Shown here: one piece after another, positions 1,490 to 38,761 of the stretch
Layout of the letters: each line of letters starts with the position of its first letter
How positions within the stretch are numbered: position 1 is the first letter of the stretch
Source of the DNA: Escherichia phage PP01
Reading direction: 5' to 3' (one strand)
Sequence record: NC_054930.1
DNA length: 64,000 nucleotides
Translations under genes and position numbers: made by a program
The notes under the pieces: model-generated
Database searches by the model: none
Told to the model about the DNA's origin: nothing
Seen by the model: only the letters and a program-made list of their open reading frames with translations

Positions 1490-2344
1490 TCACAATGAAG
1501 AAAATTCTTTAACTAAAGCCTGTAATGAAGCCTCTATTGGATATCCATTCTTAACTAACATTTTCCTAAACATTACATGTTTAGGACGATTATATGATAT
1601 CCACAATTCATACAATTTATCTTTATTATCCCAATGATAGCCTTTTCGTCGAGATGCTATATGAGCTTTTCTAATCTCCGGATTTTTCCAACTAGCAGCT
1701 ACTGAATTTGATATAGCTATTTTATATTCAGGTTTTGATAAAGCAGCACGAACAGCCTTTTGGTGTTTAATTTTATTTTCTTCGTTATTAAACCATTCCC
1801 TTGAAGCCATTGAAATTTTTTGTTTTGTTTTAAAATTATTTAATCTTTCTTTATTATCTTTCCTATTTTTTGCTACTGAAAAATATTTTAATGCCCTTTC
1901 TCTAGCAGCATTTCTATTTTGCGGATTTGAATAATACTGTTGAAGCCTTTTTGATATTGTGTCACTTACATCTTGTTTTATAAAACTATATTCAGCAGCT
2001 ATTAAATCAACTTCGGCTAAAGATAAATTTTTATATGTTTTTCCTGACATCATTCTATTTAAAGCATTTAACATTTTTCCATTTTTACCTTTTGCTAATA
2101 AGAAGTGTGCTTTAAAATGATTAAAATGACTTAAATTAACTAAATTCCATGTAGATTTTAAATATTCAGGAAATATTGATTTAGGAAGCACGTGGTGTGC
2201 TTCCGTTTTACCTGGAGTTTTAACAGTTGAATTCACAGAAATAAAATTAATGTAAGACTTGGCGTCTTCTTCACTCAACGCTAATTTTTCAACTAATTCC
2301 TTTATTAAAAATTCATCATTAATGTCAAGTTTAAAATTCTTCAC
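1490..2344 (-). CDS. Free-standing HNH-family homing endonuclease-like protein (Mob-like), 284 aa
   Basis: ORF track; HNH-like motif EAHHVLPKS...NLVNLSHFNHFKAH; basic C-terminal half; GTG start overlapping the stop of the upstream small ORF. Confidence 0.6.
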   Translation of the reverse strand: MKNFKLDINDEFLIKELVEKLALSEEDAKSYINFISVNSTVKTPGKTEAHHVLPKSIFPEYLKSTWNLVNLSHFNHFKAHFLLAKGKNGKMLNALNRMMSGKTYKNLSLAEVDLIAAEYSFIKQDVSDTISKRLQQYYSNPQNRNAARERALKYFSVAKNRKDNKERLNNFKTKQKISMASREWFNNEENKIKHQKAVRAALSKPEYKIAISNSVAASWKNPEIRKAHIASRRKGYHWDNKDKLYELWISYNRPKHVMFRKMLVKNGYPIEASLQALVKEFSSL

Positions 2345-2556: not shown

Positions 2557-2791
2557 CCTTAATACAAGATACAGCCATATCTCGCAATGATTTAGGTGTG
2601 TCATTATCTAAAATGTTGAAGTTAAAAGATACAGCCCAGTCAGTGCAGACCGTAACCTTTTTAATACAATTATCTTCAACCTCTAGCGGTTCAAACCAAT
2701 ATTCAATAATTTCTTTATGCCCAATATCATCTTTTACTTCGCATTCAAAATGCTGACTCATCATAACATTTTTAAATTCATCAAAAGTCAT
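2528..2791 (-). CDS. Hypothetical protein, 87 aa
   Basis: ORF track; same strand as neighbours; stop overlaps the next gene's start. Confidence 0.45.
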   Translation of the reverse strand: MTFDEFKNVMMSQHFECEVKDDIGHKEIIEYWFEPLEVEDNCIKKVTVCTDWAVSFNFNILDNDTPKSLRDMAVSCIKDAYCEVFDI

Positions 2792-3807
2792 TGTGTTGCC
2801 TCTACATATAACTGATTTGCATATTGAATAAGTGCTTCGCGGTCAGAATCAGTGATGTCTGGAATTGCATTAATATATTCTTCCATCAACGTTTGAAGAG
2901 ATTGAACTTCAACTTCTTCACTATCATCTGACTCGACAGAGTTATCAATCTTTGACACAACTCGTAATGAATGCACAACTTTTTCTAGTTCAGATTCGAA
3001 CTTCGTTAGATTTTTGTCTACTTCAGTTACTATAACACGTACTGATAGATTTGTAAAATCTTTATAGTCAATTTTTCCTTTAAATGGATAATGAATTCTA
3101 CGATGCCAGGTAGTATTGTTTGGAATAAATTCCATTCGTTCTGTTTCTGTATCAAACATCCAGAACCCGCGAGGGTCATTCTCGTCACCTGCAGTTAGTG
3201 TCCATGGTGTCCCAATATATCTGACGTTTGCAGCCTCAGAAATAGTATGGAAGTGACCAGACCACACTTCTTTATAAGTCTTAAGGAAATCAGGTTCAAG
3301 ACCGTGAGATTTCATTCCTTTATAAAAATAAAATCCATTCAGTTCCCAGTGACCAACACAAAAAGAAGCAGATGAAGTTTTGATGTGTTCAAGAATTTCA
3401 CCAGTATTTTCTTCGCACATCCAAGGAATTAAATCAATCAAACATCCGTCAAAATCTACTGTAGTAGGCTTATCATATACTTTAACATTAGGATATTTAG
3501 CCAAAAGCTCAGTAGAAGCATTTGGAGTTAAAGTATTTTTAAAGTGCATATCATGGTTTCCTACAACAGTATGTAGGGTAATACCAGCATCATCAAGCAT
3601 TTGAACTATTTCACGAGCGAACTCCATAGTTTTATGCGTGATTGCTTTTCGCACATCAAAAATATCGCCGTATTGAATCCATGTAGTAATTCCGTTTTTC
3701 TTAGAATATTCTATTGCTTGTTTAATTCCATCCAACTGAATGGATTGAACCCACTCATCATCGGCTTTAACACCTAAATGCCAATCACCTAAATTTAAAA
3801 TTTTCAT
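2788..3807 (-). CDS. 47: Recombination nuclease subunit gp47 (Mre11-like metallophosphoesterase)
   Basis: 339 aa, same length as T4 gp47; phosphoesterase motifs GDWHLG, GDIFD, GNHD, GHWE, GHFH. Confidence 0.9.
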   Translation of the reverse strand: MKILNLGDWHLGVKADDEWVQSIQLDGIKQAIEYSKKNGITTWIQYGDIFDVRKAITHKTMEFAREIVQMLDDAGITLHTVVGNHDMHFKNTLTPNASTELLAKYPNVKVYDKPTTVDFDGCLIDLIPWMCEENTGEILEHIKTSSASFCVGHWELNGFYFYKGMKSHGLEPDFLKTYKEVWSGHFHTISEAANVRYIGTPWTLTAGDENDPRGFWMFDTETERMEFIPNNTTWHRRIHYPFKGKIDYKDFTNLSVRVIVTEVDKNLTKFESELEKVVHSLRVVSKIDNSVESDDSEEVEVQSLQTLMEEYINAIPDITDSDREALIQYANQLYVEATQ

Positions 3808-5429: not shown

Positions 5430-5636
5430 TCACAGTTGCCACCATTTTTTGACTTGATAAGAATCAACCCACACTTTCATATTAGGGTCTGCTCTTACAA
5501 TAGGAGGATTAACTTCTTTGATTGAACTATCATGGTATTCTTTTTCAGAAATTTTCACGCAAAGATGACCATTCAAAGATTCAGTAAATCCTGCATTAAT
5601 TTTAAGACGCTTGAATTTTACGTGTGTAAGCATCAA
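5430..5636 (-). CDS. Hypothetical protein, 68 aa
   Basis: ORF track; co-directional early-region ORF. Confidence 0.4.
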   Translation of the reverse strand: MMLTHVKFKRLKINAGFTESLNGHLCVKISEKEYHDSSIKEVNPPIVRADPNMKVWVDSYQVKKWWQL

Positions 5637-9528: not shown

Positions 9529-9999
9529 TTAATCATGTTTCCACACCCCATCGGTATTTGACCAAAGTCGCTGATTATCTGATCCTCGCCACAGCTTTTT
9601 GGTCGGAAGATTTTTCTCATACTTCCCATCAATAATAACATCAACATATTTAAGCATTTCTAGTTGTTTAATATCTTCAAACTTATATCCTGTCCACAAC
9701 CAAATGCTTTTATTTGGATAAAGATTTTTTACTGTTTGAACAATGCAATGAACAACATCTCGGTTATCAGGATAGAGAGGGTCTCCTCCAGTTATAGTTA
9801 ATCCTTCTATATAATCATTATTCAAACATTCAATTAATTGTTCCAGCGTTTCACCAGTGAATGGAATGCCATTTCTAGCATTCCATGTTGATTTATTATA
9901 ACACCCTTCACATTTATGCAAACAACCTGTAACGAAAAGAACGACCCTGCAACCAGGGCCATTCACAAAGCAGCACGGGTATATTCTGTCATAATTCAT
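9529..9999 (-). CDS. nrdG: Anaerobic ribonucleotide reductase activating protein (radical SAM)
   Basis: ORF track 9529..10020; Cys cluster CCFVNGPGCRVVLFVTGCLHKCEGCYN; start at MNYDRIYP gives 156 aa as in T4. Confidence 0.85.
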   Translation of the reverse strand: MNYDRIYPCCFVNGPGCRVVLFVTGCLHKCEGCYNKSTWNARNGIPFTGETLEQLIECLNNDYIEGLTITGGDPLYPDNRDVVHCIVQTVKNLYPNKSIWLWTGYKFEDIKQLEMLKYVDVIIDGKYEKNLPTKKLWRGSDNQRLWSNTDGVWKHD

Positions 10000-10826
10000 A
10001 ATAATATCCAATTTTTCCAAGCTTCATCAGTAGAATTACAGCGTTTTAGTATAAGATGTCTAGAAACTTTTATGGCATTTGAGCACTTTTTAATTGAATC
10101 ATATTTAATACCGTCAACTGAAACGGTTTTGCTAGTTGGAGAAATTTTTCCATACATTGGATTTTTTGAACCAACTTGAAGTCCTTTTAAAGCTTTTGAA
10201 AGCTTTTGTCTAGATTCCAATGACATGGGAGAATTCTTTTTACCTTCAATAATTCGCTTGCGATGAAGTTCGCGTTCTTCTTCACTCAAAGAATTGTAAT
10301 ATTTTTTAACACCGTTTGATATAGATAATTTATCTTTCTCAGACCGCTCTCCAGCTAATTTACTTCTAACATCTTTTCGCTTCATAGCTATGCTTACGGC
10401 TTTATTTAAATTTGCTTGATGCTCTGGCGTACGTTTATATTTCTTTAAAGCACGTGAAATAGCTATTTTAGTTTCTTCTGTTCTCTTTTTACCTTTATTT
10501 GCTAAACTATTTTTGCGGCGATGTTCAAGTGTCTGTTCATAGGCAGTTCCACCTTTTCCACCAGGTTTAATATTATATGTATTTTCTTTTAGACAATACT
10601 CTTCGGTTACAAGTTCAGCTTCTTTATCATACATTTGTTTTTCATTATCAAAAACATGTAAAATTTCTTTATTAAAATTTTTTCTACCATATTTTAATAA
10701 AGCGGCACGAATCAATGTTCCTGACCCCATATAACCGTCATTTATGTTATCGGTGCTATGCGCACCGATATATTCCTTTGAATTAATTATATTTGTTATT
10801 TTATAAATTATATAATACCTATGCAT
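9996..10826 (-). CDS. GIY-YIG homing endonuclease (Seg-like), 276 aa, free-standing between nrdG and nrdD
   Basis: N-terminal GIY-YIG module YIIYKITNIINSKEYIGAHST...YMGSG; N-terminal ~70 aa closely parallel segB in this window; basic C-terminal DNA-binding half. Confidence 0.8.
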   Translation of the reverse strand: MHRYYIIYKITNIINSKEYIGAHSTDNINDGYMGSGTLIRAALLKYGRKNFNKEILHVFDNEKQMYDKEAELVTEEYCLKENTYNIKPGGKGGTAYEQTLEHRRKNSLANKGKKRTEETKIAISRALKKYKRTPEHQANLNKAVSIAMKRKDVRSKLAGERSEKDKLSISNGVKKYYNSLSEEERELHRKRIIEGKKNSPMSLESRQKLSKALKGLQVGSKNPMYGKISPTSKTVSVDGIKYDSIKKCSNAIKVSRHLILKRCNSTDEAWKNWILL

Positions 10827-12636
10827 GTTTTACTCGTTTTACCATTTCTTTCATTTTACCTAAATTCCATGGAACAACGCTAGGAGTTCCAAGATAACCG
10901 CATGTTCTTCTTATGGTGTTCATCTTTTTAGGATCAGTTTCTCCACAAATAGAACAAACAAATCCGTTTTCAGTAGGAGTCATTTCATGGGTACTTCCAC
11001 ACGTAAAACATTTATCTACCGGCATGTTAACACCAAAATAATCTAAATGTTGTGCAGCATAATCCCATACGGCCTCAAGACCCTTTAAGTTATTTTTCAT
11101 ATCAGGAAGTTCAACATAAGAAATGTGACCGCCTGTCGCAATGAAATGATATGGCGCTTCACGAGAAATCTTTTCAAACGGAGTAATATTTTCTTCTACT
11201 GAAACATGGAAACTGTTAGTGTACCAGCCTTTATCGGTAACATCTTTTACGCTTCCATATTTTTCTGTATCGAGTTTACAGAAGCGATAACAAAGGTTTT
11301 CAGCAGGAGTAGAATACAAGCTAAAAGCAAAACCGGTTCTTTCAGTCCACTGCTTAAGACGAGCATTCATTTTAGTCAAAATTTCCTGTCCAATATCACG
11401 ACCGACAAGAATATTCAATTCGTGAATACCAATGTATCCTAGGGACACTGAACTTCTACCGTTTTTAAATAACTCAATTATGTCGTCATCAGGTTTAAGA
11501 CGAACCCCGAATGCACCTTCTTGGTAAAGAATAGGAGCAACAGTCGCTTTAACTCCTTTTAAGGAACTAATTCTACACATCAAAGCTTCAAAACACAAAT
11601 CCATACGTTCATTGAATAATTCAACAAATTTCTGTTCATTGAACTGTGTTCCAATATAAGAATCTAACGCGATGCGAGGAAGATTCAGTGTTACAACACC
11701 AAGATTATTACGTCCATCAAGAATTTCATTACCAGTCGAATCTTTCCATACGCTCAAGAAACTACGGCAACCCATTGGAGAAACAGGAACAGATGAACCA
11801 GTGATAGCTTTATTGTTCTTAGCTGAAATAATATCAGGATACATCCTTTTGCTTGCACACTCTAGAGCAAGCTGCTTAATATCATAGTTCGGATCGTCTT
11901 TATAAAGATTAACACCTTCTTCAACGAACATAACAAGTTTAGGGAAAATAGGAGTTATCCCATCACGACCAAGACCTTTAATACGATTTTTCAGAATTGC
12001 TTTCTGAATCATTCGTTCAGTCCAGTCAGTTCCCGTACCAAATGTAATTGTTACAAAAGGCGTTTGTCCGTTTGAACTAAAGAGAGTATTTACTTCATAT
12101 TCATAAGCTTGGAACGCATCGTATACGTCTTTTTCTGTTTTAGATTGGGCATAATTCAACGCGTCAGCGATTTGCCATTTTTCTGCATCCTCAATATGTT
12201 TTGCATAGGTGCGTTTAACATAAGGAGAAAGGACTTTATCTACATTCGCAAAAGTCGTTCCACCGTATTGATGGGAAGCAACCTGTGCAGTAATTTGTGC
12301 CATAATTGCAGTAGCAACACCGATTGATTTAGGAGTTTCAATCTGTGCATTACCGAGCTTAAATCCGTTCTCAAGCATTCCTTTTAAATCTACTAAACAG
12401 CAATTAGTAAATGGAAGAGCAGGGGAATAATCAATATCATGGAAATGAATAATTCCGCTTTCATGCGCTTTCATAATAAAAGACGGGACCATATTTTTGG
12501 CAATGTGTTTAGACACAATACCAGCCATAAGGTCCCGTTGAGTTGGAAAAACACGAGAATCTTTATTAGCATTCTCGTTTAAAAGGTCTTTATTAGTTTT
12601 ATGAATCAATCCTTCAATTTCTTTTTCAATTGTCAT
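10819..12636 (-). CDS. nrdD: Anaerobic ribonucleoside-triphosphate reductase (glycyl-radical enzyme), uninterrupted
   Basis: 605 aa; C-terminal Zn ribbon (CFTCGSTHEM...CSICG) and glycyl-radical motif RRTCGYLG; one continuous ORF with no intron. Confidence 0.93.
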   Translation of the reverse strand: MTIEKEIEGLIHKTNKDLLNENANKDSRVFPTQRDLMAGIVSKHIAKNMVPSFIMKAHESGIIHFHDIDYSPALPFTNCCLVDLKGMLENGFKLGNAQIETPKSIGVATAIMAQITAQVASHQYGGTTFANVDKVLSPYVKRTYAKHIEDAEKWQIADALNYAQSKTEKDVYDAFQAYEYEVNTLFSSNGQTPFVTITFGTGTDWTERMIQKAILKNRIKGLGRDGITPIFPKLVMFVEEGVNLYKDDPNYDIKQLALECASKRMYPDIISAKNNKAITGSSVPVSPMGCRSFLSVWKDSTGNEILDGRNNLGVVTLNLPRIALDSYIGTQFNEQKFVELFNERMDLCFEALMCRISSLKGVKATVAPILYQEGAFGVRLKPDDDIIELFKNGRSSVSLGYIGIHELNILVGRDIGQEILTKMNARLKQWTERTGFAFSLYSTPAENLCYRFCKLDTEKYGSVKDVTDKGWYTNSFHVSVEENITPFEKISREAPYHFIATGGHISYVELPDMKNNLKGLEAVWDYAAQHLDYFGVNMPVDKCFTCGSTHEMTPTENGFVCSICGETDPKKMNTIRRTCGYLGTPSVVPWNLGKMKEMVKRVKHA

Positions 12637-13106
12637 TTTAAACTCTTTCTAAGCTGCTTCTTAAATGAAGCTATTAATTGTGTTTTAGTGTCAGATTCAT
12701 TATATTCAAATCCTCTTTGAAGCATCTCAGCCATCATTTCCTCTTTTCCTAAACGAGAAAATTCCTTTGATTTATCTCCAACGAAGTTAGGGTGAATATT
12801 ATTTTGGGTGTAATCGGATTTTAAATAAGTAAGTAAATTTTCTAGCCATTCAAGATAATCAACACCTTGTCCCTTTAAGCCAGAACGATTGAATTTATGC
12901 TTCATTTGACCTTCTGCAGCATTACAGAGATTACATAGCAACCCACGTACCTTTCCTGCTTTTGGTCCATTTAATTCATGGTCATGGTCAAGGTGATTAG
13001 CTTGAACATCAGGATTTAGTTCTCGTTGGCAAATTAAGCATTTACCGTTTTGTGCATCATAAAATTTCTGTTTTTCTTCTTTGTATAATTTGCCAGTCAA
13101 TAACAT
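12633..13106 (-). CDS. 49: Endonuclease VII (Holliday-junction resolvase)
   Basis: 157 aa; Zn-binding CLICQ...HLDHDHE...CNLCN motifs as in T4 endo VII. Confidence 0.9.
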   Translation of the reverse strand: MLLTGKLYKEEKQKFYDAQNGKCLICQRELNPDVQANHLDHDHELNGPKAGKVRGLLCNLCNAAEGQMKHKFNRSGLKGQGVDYLEWLENLLTYLKSDYTQNNIHPNFVGDKSKEFSRLGKEEMMAEMLQRGFEYNESDTKTQLIASFKKQLRKSLK

Positions 13107-37402: not shown

Positions 37403-37479
<77 letters not shown>

Positions 37480-37482
37480 TAA

Positions 37483-38148
37483 TTAAAATTTCATTTTTCG
37501 ACCTTTAAACCATCCTTCTGGAATTGGGTCAGTTTTCTTAATACGTTTAGAAACTTTTTCATCCAATGAATGAATCCACATCATGCCAAATTGGGAATTC
37601 TTTTCACCTTGTTGGTGTTTATTTCTGGCGTGAGATTCTTTCATTTTATTAATAGTTTCAGGAGTATGGGTCTTACCCAAGAAAGATTTAGTATTTAAAA
37701 ATTTCTCTCTATACTTAGGATTATCCCAAAGCTGTTTAAACCTTTCTGAACCCATTTTACGATATTTTTCTTTAAGGTCTGGGTCGTTCTCAAATCTGGT
37801 TTTAAAAGCGGCAGCTCCTTTTAAGGAAGCTTCTTTCTTTTTATCCAAATATTCTTTAGTGTTTAAATGGTCCCAACCACCTTCACCACCTAATTTCAGA
37901 TTATAAACATCAGGGCGCTTTAAAAACTCTTCAGTCACAATATTCTTTTCTGACTCAAACATAGAGGTTTTATCGTCAAAGAACTCTAATATTTCTTTAG
38001 AAAAATTTTCTATACCATATTTATCTTGGGCTCTTTTTAATAATTTACCAGAACCCATATATCCATCATCTAAATTTTCGGTAGAATGAGCGCCTATATA
38101 GATTTTATTATTAATTTTATTTGTTATTTTATAAATGTAATGGAACAT
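37483..38148 (-). CDS. segB: GIY-YIG homing endonuclease SegB
   Basis: 221 aa; GIY-YIG motif HYIYKITNKINNKIYIGAHST...YMGSG; embedded in the tRNA cluster as in T4. Confidence 0.85.
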   Translation of the reverse strand: MFHYIYKITNKINNKIYIGAHSTENLDDGYMGSGKLLKRAQDKYGIENFSKEILEFFDDKTSMFESEKNIVTEEFLKRPDVYNLKLGGEGGWDHLNTKEYLDKKKEASLKGAAAFKTRFENDPDLKEKYRKMGSERFKQLWDNPKYREKFLNTKSFLGKTHTPETINKMKESHARNKHQQGEKNSQFGMMWIHSLDEKVSKRIKKTDPIPEGWFKGRKMKF

Positions 38149-38189
38149 AAATATCTCCTATTTCTAAGAGTATTTATGTTCCCAAAATA

Positions 38190-38261
38190 TGGCCCTGGGT
38201 GGAATTGAACCACCATCTGGCGATTATGAGTCGCTTGCTTGAACCTTCCAGCTACAGGGCC
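38190..38261 (-). tRNA. tRNA with anticodon CAT (Ile, AUA-decoding, by analogy to T4; or Met)
   Basis: Acceptor GGCCCTG/CAGGGCC, anticodon loop CTCATAA, T-arm GGTGG-TTCAATT-CCACC. +/-2 nt. Confidence 0.7.
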
Positions 38262-38267
38262 TTGATA

Positions 38268-38340
38268 TGCTGATTGACGGAATCGAACCGCCGACGTCCT
38301 CATTACAAGTGAGGTGCTCTACCTACTGAGCTAAATCAGC
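38268..38340 (-). tRNA. tRNA-Thr (anticodon TGT)
   Basis: Acceptor GCTGATT/AATCAGC, anticodon loop CTTGTAA, T-arm GGCGG-TTCGATT-CCGTC. +/-2 nt. Confidence 0.8.
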
Positions 38341-38347
38341 GAAATTA

Positions 38348-38434
38348 CGGAGGCGATAGGATTTGAACCTATGAGTCGCCGGAGCGACTGCCGGTTTTCA
38401 AGACCGGTGCATTAAACCACTCTGCCACGCCTCC
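38348..38434 (-). tRNA. tRNA-Ser (anticodon TGA), long variable arm
   Basis: Acceptor GGAGGCG/CGCCTCC, anticodon loop CTTGAAA, T-arm ATAGG-TTCAAAT-CCTAT; 2-nt spacer to tRNA-Pro. +/-2 nt. Confidence 0.8.
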
Positions 38435-38436
38435 AG

Positions 38437-38510
38437 TCTCCGCGGCAGGATTTGAACCTGCGACATTCTGCTCCCAAAGCAGACGCTCTACCAAACTGAG
38501 CTACACGGAG
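38437..38510 (-). tRNA. tRNA-Pro (anticodon TGG)
   Basis: Acceptor CTCCGTG/CGCGGAG (one G-U), anticodon loop TTTGGGA, T-arm GCAGG-TTCAAAT-CCTGC. +/-2 nt. Confidence 0.8.
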
Positions 38511-38522
38511 TAAATTAAATTT

Positions 38523-38594
<72 letters not shown>

Positions 38595-38600
38595 AAACTT

Positions 38601-38687
38601 TGGTACGAGAAGTGGGACTCGAACCCACAAGGAAATCATTCCGCAGCATTTTAAGTGCTGTGCCTTTACCAATTTGACCATTCTCGC
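38601..38687 (-). tRNA. tRNA-Leu (anticodon TAA), long variable arm, CCA encoded
   Basis: Acceptor GCGAGAA/TTCTCGT, anticodon loop CTTAAAA, T-arm GTGGG-TTCGAGT-CCCAC; 1-nt spacer to tRNA-Gln. +/-2 nt. Confidence 0.8.
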
Positions 38688-38688
38688 G

Positions 38689-38761
38689 CTGGGAATAAAG
38701 GACTCGAACCTTTGCATCCTGGAATCAAAATCCAGTGCCTTACCAACTTGGCTAATTCCCA
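38689..38761 (-). tRNA. tRNA-Gln (anticodon TTG)
   Basis: Minus strand reads TGGGAATTAGCCAAGTTGGTAAGGCACTGGATTTTGATTCCAG...GGTTCGAGTCCTTTATTCCCAG, matching my recollection of T4 tRNA-Gln. +/-2 nt. Confidence 0.85.

Follow-up and report, generated by a model that had tools for sequence, protein, structure and literature searches.

A predicted homing endonuclease gene, segH, at the nrdD/nrdG junction of a T4-like phage genome segment

A 276-codon open reading frame (ORF) located between nrdD and nrdG in a segment of the Escherichia phage PP01 genome (NC_054930.1) is very probably segH, a free-standing, promoter-less gene of T-even phages that is predicted from its sequence to encode a GIY-YIG homing endonuclease. 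We place the probability of this assignment at about 93%. The gene is already known by name, through GenBank entries, and through a paper dedicated to it. Below we describe its locus, its relatives, and its distribution, and we consider the diverged sequences that travel with it as well as the other genes that occupy the same site. Throughout, "the window" refers to the whole 64,000-nucleotide stretch of DNA that was analyzed.

Results and discussion

The ORF between nrdD and nrdG corresponds to segH

The window is a segment of a T4-like (Tequatrovirus) genome. Genes on its minus strand are arranged in the order 49, nrdD, the 276-aa ORF, and nrdG, such that the ORF noted in the initial annotation is indeed present between the two nrd genes. 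The features relevant to this locus, and to its relative segB, are as follows.

9529-9999, minus strand: nrdG, encoding the activase (Pfam Fer4_12, E 2.5e-48; start as annotated in T6, T2, and RB3)
9911-10896, minus strand: 986-bp tract identical to phage EC121, comprising the nrdD tail, segH, and the nrdG 5´ end; an apparent mobile unit (nearest mismatches at 9910 and 10897)
9996-10826, minus strand: segH coding sequence, 276 aa, ATG start (ORF; identity to SegH; PHROG 314)
10008-10151, minus strand: predicted C-terminal I-TevI-like helix-turn-helix DNA-binding module, aa 226-273 (Pfam, BLASTP)
10143-10529, minus strand: basic linker with NUMOD3-type repeats, about aa 100-228 (Pfam NUMOD3 and inspection by eye)
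10542-10826, minus strand: N-terminal GIY-YIG nuclease domain, about aa 1-95, with Y8 (GIY), Y19 and G21 (YIG), E69, and N85
10819-10902, minus strand: diverged nrdD 3´ tail that travels with segH and encodes ...GTPSVVPWNLGKMKEMVKRVKHA instead of ...GNPNERGFNLGKNKEIMHRVKHQ
10819-12636, minus strand: nrdD, encoding the large subunit of anaerobic ribonucleotide reductase, 605 aa, intron-less (single ORF; Pfam NRDD, E 6.5e-172)
12633-13106, minus strand: gene 49 (endonuclease VII)
37483-38148, minus strand: segB, within a tRNA cluster (83% identical to T4 SegB over all 221 aa; Pfam GIY-YIG, E 7.2e-6)

Both neighbors of segH are overlapped by it. Specifically, the segH ATG shares 8 nt (ATGCATAG, 10819-10826) with the 3´ end of nrdD. 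An overlap of this length had been correctly recognized, but it had been assigned to the start of nrdD. Position 10819 is the low window coordinate of this minus-strand gene and therefore lies at its stop codon, opposite its translational start. At the other end of segH, the stop codon and the nrdG ATG share the 4 nt ATGA (9996-9999), which agrees with the few nucleotides originally proposed and which assumes that nrdG begins at the ATG annotated in T6, T2, and RB3. A TTG at position 10020 was dismissed as the nrdG start, being a mere mechanical upstream extension from the ORF listing.

The protein encoded by the ORF is 100% identical over 276 aa to RB3 SegH (ABI48949.1), the top tblastn match in the phage collection. 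The corresponding record (AY262138.2) annotates the product as "SegH homing endonuclease" and places its gene between nrdD and nrdG. Similarly, 271 of the 276 residues (98%) are identical in T6 SegH, and the T6 genome (MH550421) carries an annotated segH in the order nrdG-segH-nrdD-49, as in the window. Sister deposits of the gene come from LZ2 (AY262139) and T6 (AY262137), and PHROG 314 ("homing endonuclease") matches the window protein with an E value of 2.4e-60. Neither this match nor the complete identity to a deposited SegH can be put down to chance. The original proposal of a free-standing GIY-YIG endonuclease of the intronless homing or marker exclusion type agrees with the annotation and publication of this gene as SegH, and on that comparison it appears to be well founded.

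The name goes back to Sandegren, Nord and Sjöberg (NAR 2005, 33:6203), who described SegH as the product of a GIY-YIG gene found in place of the T4 HNH gene mobC. SegH reportedly acts as an endonuclease that cleaves close to its own gene, cuts the DNA of both segH-containing and segH-lacking phages, and homes in mixed infections. The replacement of mobC by segH between nrdD and nrdG is mentioned in a bioRxiv paper and in a 2010 review (PMC2988022), both of which cite Sandegren et al. 2005, and the sentences concerned give no SegH cleavage site.

The labels attached to this gene vary among database records. In the genomes of RB3, RB5, RB6, RB7, RB9, and RB10 (KM606994-KM606999, NC_025419) it is called "segD", whereas the original RB3 deposit (AY262138) uses segH. 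The best match of the protein in T4 is SegD, and the label used for RB3 and RB5 through RB10 therefore probably reflects annotation transfer. Other complete genomes list the product as a "hypothetical protein". Exposing these mislabeled copies of segH in complete genomes is of practical value.

Predicted domain architecture of SegH

An alignment of seven Seg domains (SegH, the SegB of the window, and T4 SegA through SegE) reveals no variation at Y8, Y19, G21, E69, and N85 or in the DGYMGSG motif. When a profile of these seven sequences is searched against the PDB, the top matches are two structures of the I-TevI catalytic domain (1LN0 and 1MK0, E 0.0016), and SegH residues Y8, Y19, G21, E69, and N85 align with I-TevI Y6, Y17, G19, E75 (one register off), and N90. 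At the position of the catalytic Arg27 of I-TevI, nine residues are deleted from all of the Seg proteins, and because of this deletion no SegH counterpart of Arg27 can be placed by alignment. PDB searches with a single sequence, either full-length SegH or its C-terminal 84 aa, returned only noise. The Pfam SegE_GIY-YIG model gives a weak match to SegH alone (18.6 bits versus a cut-off of 25), and PF01541 has no reported match to it.

Within the linker that follows, Pfam NUMOD3 matches residues 200-228 with 33.8 bits, above its cut-off of 20.4, and further NUMOD3-like repeats are recognizable by eye only. The C-terminus is matched by the Pfam I-TevI_DNA-bd model (E 3e-4; 21.1 bits, under the cut-off of 27) and is aligned by BLASTP with I-TevI residues 194-243 (E 0.003). 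Together, these weak but consistent matches suggest that SegH ends in an I-TevI-like helix-turn-helix.

Relationship of SegH to SegB and other Seg proteins

The initial annotation regarded the ORF as paralogous to segB, with similar N-terminal regions and divergent C-terminal halves. This division is borne out by pairwise BLASTP alignment of the two window proteins, in which 52 of 99 residues (53%) are identical with an E value of 3e-34, and only in the N-terminal part. The C-terminal halves are unrelated. Such a strong N-terminal match might indicate that segH is an ortholog or a recent duplicate of segB, an idea to which we give almost no credence once the Seg proteins of T4 are considered. 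The N-terminal domain of SegH is about equally similar to those of T4 SegB (54%), SegA (46%), SegC (45%), and SegE (45%) as judged by BLASTP. Moreover, the T4 relative with the lowest E value is SegD, which is also the only one to align with SegH end to end (32% identity over 263 residues).

The window has its true segB elsewhere, with 83% identity to the T4 protein, whereas SegH lacks both full-length likeness to T4 SegB and a site in the tRNA cluster; only its N-terminal 90-99 aa align, at 53-54% identity. The segB duplicate was rejected on this comparison of T4 Seg proteins, given that SegD is closest and that the N-terminal likeness extends across the family. Thus, what holds of the proposed paralogy is kinship at the family level; the special closeness to segB does not hold, as SegA through SegE are alike in their 45-54% identity and SegD is the best match.

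The segB gene of the window resides inside a cluster of eight tRNA genes (37403-38761, minus strand) in the order Arg, segB, Met(CAU), Thr, Ser, Pro, Gly, Leu, and Gln. The T4 counterpart of the CAU tRNA, listed here as Met, is annotated as tRNA-Ile.

Distribution and conservation of segH

Judged by sequence comparison, the distribution of segH is that of a mobile element. A DNA query with segH matches 71 phage records, of which 69 are full length and 53 are at least 99% identical, and a query with T4 mobC matches 32 records, all at 99% identity or more. A query spanning the junction (nrdG 5´ region, segH, and nrdD 3´ region) matches 814 records, 68 of them with segH. Of 60 records taken at even intervals from these 814, 42 have an empty 948-bp site in which nrdD and nrdG overlap directly by ATGA, as in T2. 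Among close relatives, segH is thus sporadic, and both it and mobC are rare relative to the empty site.

The degree of conservation also differs between the gene and its surroundings. Relative to EC121, segH has no mismatches in 831 positions, whereas nrdD is 97.1% and nrdG 98.7% identical. Because the cassette is more conserved than its flanks and is found in a minority of otherwise syntenic genomes, segH is likely to have spread laterally in recent times.

Decayed or interrupted copies were also observed. In phage PD112 (MH837626, about 1940-2180), 243 bp from the two ends of segH are left, with 100% identity to the window, and 588 bp of internal sequence are deleted. The PD112 locus keeps the segH-type nrdD tail, and its gene 49 region is replaced by something unrelated (about 63% identity). 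In phages sutha and FL18, segH is annotated as two ORFs, and the gene in sutha spans 835 bp versus 831.

segH and the nrdD intron are independent elements

As stated in the initial annotation, nrdD of the window is a single uninterrupted ORF of 605 codons, whereas T4 nrdD carries an intron. Alignment of the two genes confirms that the T4 intron is absent from the window. This 1033-nt group I intron encodes I-TevII and follows nucleotide 538 of T4 nrdD, which corresponds to window position 12098/12099. T4 has both the intron and mobC, T2 has neither, and the window and T6 have segH without the intron. A tie between segH and the absence of the intron was ruled out by segH-containing genomes that carry the intron, including EC128, CE1, and others, in which the region is longer by about 1030 bp and its match is split in two. 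Because such genomes exist, the lack of the intron has no connection with segH, and intron and segH are independent elements.

Diverged flanks accompany segH

Alignment of the junction demonstrates that the last ~75 nt of nrdD are strongly diverged in segH-containing genomes. A single 100-nt bin holds 19 mismatches to T2, and the other bins contain 0-8. Similarly, 11 of the 14 amino acid differences between NrdD of the window and that of T4 are located in the 22 C-terminal residues, directly behind the glycyl-radical motif RRTCGYLG. The 84-nt tail is present in only 79 records, almost all of which have segH, and the peptide it encodes is at least 95% identical in these 79 records and at most 74% identical in all others. 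No donor lineage for this tail was found by blastn or tblastn in the phage collection, where the range between 95% and 74% is empty. This restriction to 79 records, together with the lack of intermediates, suggests that the tail is tightly linked to segH and that its donor lies outside the collection. In at least eight records the segH-type tail is present but segH itself is missing, and several of them have mobC.

On the opposite side of segH, the first ~40 nt of nrdG (about 9960-9999) also form a variant, with MNYDRIYPCCFV in place of the T2 sequence MNYDRFYPCDFV. This nrdG 5´ variant is common to the segH-containing genomes and phage Ozark. The linked NrdD tail is a convenient marker with which to follow homing and recombination events at the nrdD/nrdG locus.

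One possible but rather doubtful explanation for these flanks is that they are self-immunity patches: SegH would cut the T2/T4-type sequence just after the glycyl-radical motif, and the segH-containing allele would have been recoded. The concentration of mismatches and amino acid changes at the junction is consistent with this idea, as is the near-confinement of the tail to segH-containing records, and the position of the diverged flanks favors protection. Homing endonucleases are also described as often targeting sequence that codes for critical residues (PMC2988022). However, the tail is found beside mobC as well, in 8 records that include SHFML-11, and it could also be no more than a flank of the donor lineage that was carried along by co-conversion. 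SegH reportedly cuts the DNA of phages with and without segH, in which case an immunity patch would be unnecessary. Furthermore, SegB cuts the DNA of T4 itself, an activity thought to be curbed by expression level (PMC2330249).

Far less probable still, in our view, is that segH of the window is an inactive relic, or that it has been domesticated as a DNA-binding regulator or as a promoter of local recombination or amplification, as with T6 SegB. Decayed copies do exist in PD112 and probably in sutha and FL18, and a host-beneficial role has been reported for T6 SegB, which amplifies anti-defense loci according to a 2026 paper (PMC13096335). Nevertheless, the window allele is full-length and intact, matches the deposited RB3 SegH in every residue, and keeps all conserved GIY-YIG positions. 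The near-identity of the 53 records with at least 99% identity, inside flanks that are more divergent, argues for recent spread rather than old decay.

Other genes occupy the nrdD/nrdG slot

The slot that holds segH in the window is occupied in T4 by the HNH gene mobC. Codons one to seven of nrdG (MNYDRIY) are repeated at the start of the T4 gene (T4 region 5519-5539), which suggests that mobC was inserted into the 5´ end of nrdG and thereby duplicated the nrdG start. A third occupant is found in phage Ozark (MT682713, 1930-2769), where a 279-aa HNH-like "hypothetical protein" is 38% identical to MobC around the HNH motif. The Ozark ORF begins with a duplicate of the first 13 codons of a T2-type nrdG, and the real nrdG downstream has the 5´ variant of segH-containing phages.

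Exchange between occupants may have left its trace in phage SHFML-11 (KX130861, 1601-1720), in which mobC adjoins a segH-type nrdD tail. The junction reads ...AAACATGCATAGG and then GTTAAACACCAATGAATTATGAC, such that the segH-type tail is joined to a T4-type remainder and mobC. The join is located at the 9-nt sequence ATGCATAGG, which is common to both allele types and is out of register, and a 13-nt relic of the T4-type nrdD end remains between the nrdD stop and the mobC start. From its sequence, this arrangement seems to have arisen by microhomology recombination, with one endonuclease gene taking the place of the other.

Taken jointly, these observations permit a tentative reading that goes beyond the identification of segH and that we hold with limited conviction. 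At least three endonuclease genes unrelated to one another (segH, mobC, and the Ozark-type HNH gene) may compete for the nrdD/nrdG junction. In this reading, segH would move as a unit of ~1 kb that brings with it a variant start of nrdG and its own recoded NrdD C-terminus, which begins directly behind the glycyl-radical motif. The occupants would then be exchanged by microhomology recombination. Should the recoded flanks confer resistance to one or more of these nucleases, the locus would offer a compact illustration from nature of how competing homing endonucleases engage in arms races over target sites. A battleground of three endonucleases with co-travelling resistance alleles would, if true, be a modest refinement of known biology.

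Another HNH-type ORF resembling homing endonucleases lies elsewhere in the window (1490-2344, minus strand; 284 aa), immediately downstream of gene 47 (2788-3807). PHROG 655 ("homing endonuclease") matches this ORF with an E value of 7.8e-45, and no Pfam family does. The encoded protein is 36% identical to the Ozark slot ORF and 30% identical to T4 MobD, and T4 has no mob gene at this position.

Expression and proposed mechanism

Neither the T4 late promoter consensus (TATAAATA) nor a MotA-box middle promoter consensus has a match upstream of or inside segH. One TGCTTTA occurs inside the gene with the wrong spacing to a -10 element. The absence of such consensus elements fits a promoter-less cassette. 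The gene is probably co-transcribed with nrdD, being read from upstream nrdD or gene 49 transcripts. Because the segH ATG overlaps the nrdD stop codon, translation would probably occur at a low level by re-initiation. Inefficient translation by re-initiation has been described for several free-standing endonucleases of T4 (2010 review, PMC2988022).

The 5´ part of nrdG contains a sigma-70-like promoter with an extended -10 element (TTTGCA-16-TATAAT, 10/12 matches; window 9895-9964, minus strand), and a terminator-like hairpin is likewise present within the nrdG coding sequence in this interval (9895-9964, minus strand). This stretch is nearly the same in T2, and thus the promoter and hairpin are not specific to segH.

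By analogy with other Seg enzymes, SegH would bind a long, degenerate site through its C-terminal NUMOD3 and helix-turn-helix modules. The N-terminal GIY-YIG domain would then cut both DNA strands of a co-infecting phage close to its nrdD/nrdG junction, leaving 2-nt 3´ overhangs, and recombinational repair on the segH-containing template would copy the gene and its flanks into the cut genome. The outcome would be intronless homing, which would also be seen as localized marker exclusion. Intronless homing has been defined for SegF, SegG, and SegE (PMC2988022). The identity, position, domain make-up, patchy distribution, and conservation of segH above that of its flanks are established by the sequence comparisons, and the last of these lends indirect support to homing, whereas cleavage and homing themselves are ascribed to SegH on the model of its relatives.

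We conclude that segH at nrdD/nrdG is a selfish element of the textbook type, and that the result is mainly a clean negative for novelty.

Comparison with known systems

The closest counterparts of the window gene are segH of RB3, T6, and LZ2, which are one and the same gene: protein identity reaches 100% with RB3 and 98% with T6, and the DNA is 99.8% identical to that of LZ2. These genes reside at the same site between nrdD and nrdG and overlap their neighbors in the same manner, and nothing sets the window gene itself apart from them. Unlike segH itself, the flanking nrdD and nrdG sequences of the window are 97-98% identical to every record, which indicates that the phage is a slightly different mosaic.

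T4 MobC corresponds to SegH in slot and orientation, and its gene likewise overlaps its neighbors. However, MobC is a nuclease of another, unrelated family (HNH, Pfam PF01844) and has no sequence similarity to SegH. Its activity is given as "not determined" in the 2010 review (PMC2988022).

The T4 SegA through SegE proteins resemble SegH in their N-terminal GIY-YIG domain (45-54% identity), which contains the DGYMGSG motif, and in a modular organization with a variable C-terminal half for DNA binding. The review cited above attributes intronless homing to these proteins (PMC2988022). In contrast to SegH, they have other insertion sites, other target genes, and other C-terminal halves, and only SegD aligns with SegH end to end.

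Finally, I-TevI and I-TevII, which are encoded by introns in T4 td and nrdD, respectively, belong to the same catalytic fold family as SegH, with ~29-30% identity over parts of SegH only. An endonuclease of the I-TevII type is encoded by an ORF inside a group I intron of its target gene, whereas segH resides between genes, outside of any intron and beside an nrdD that is itself intron-less.
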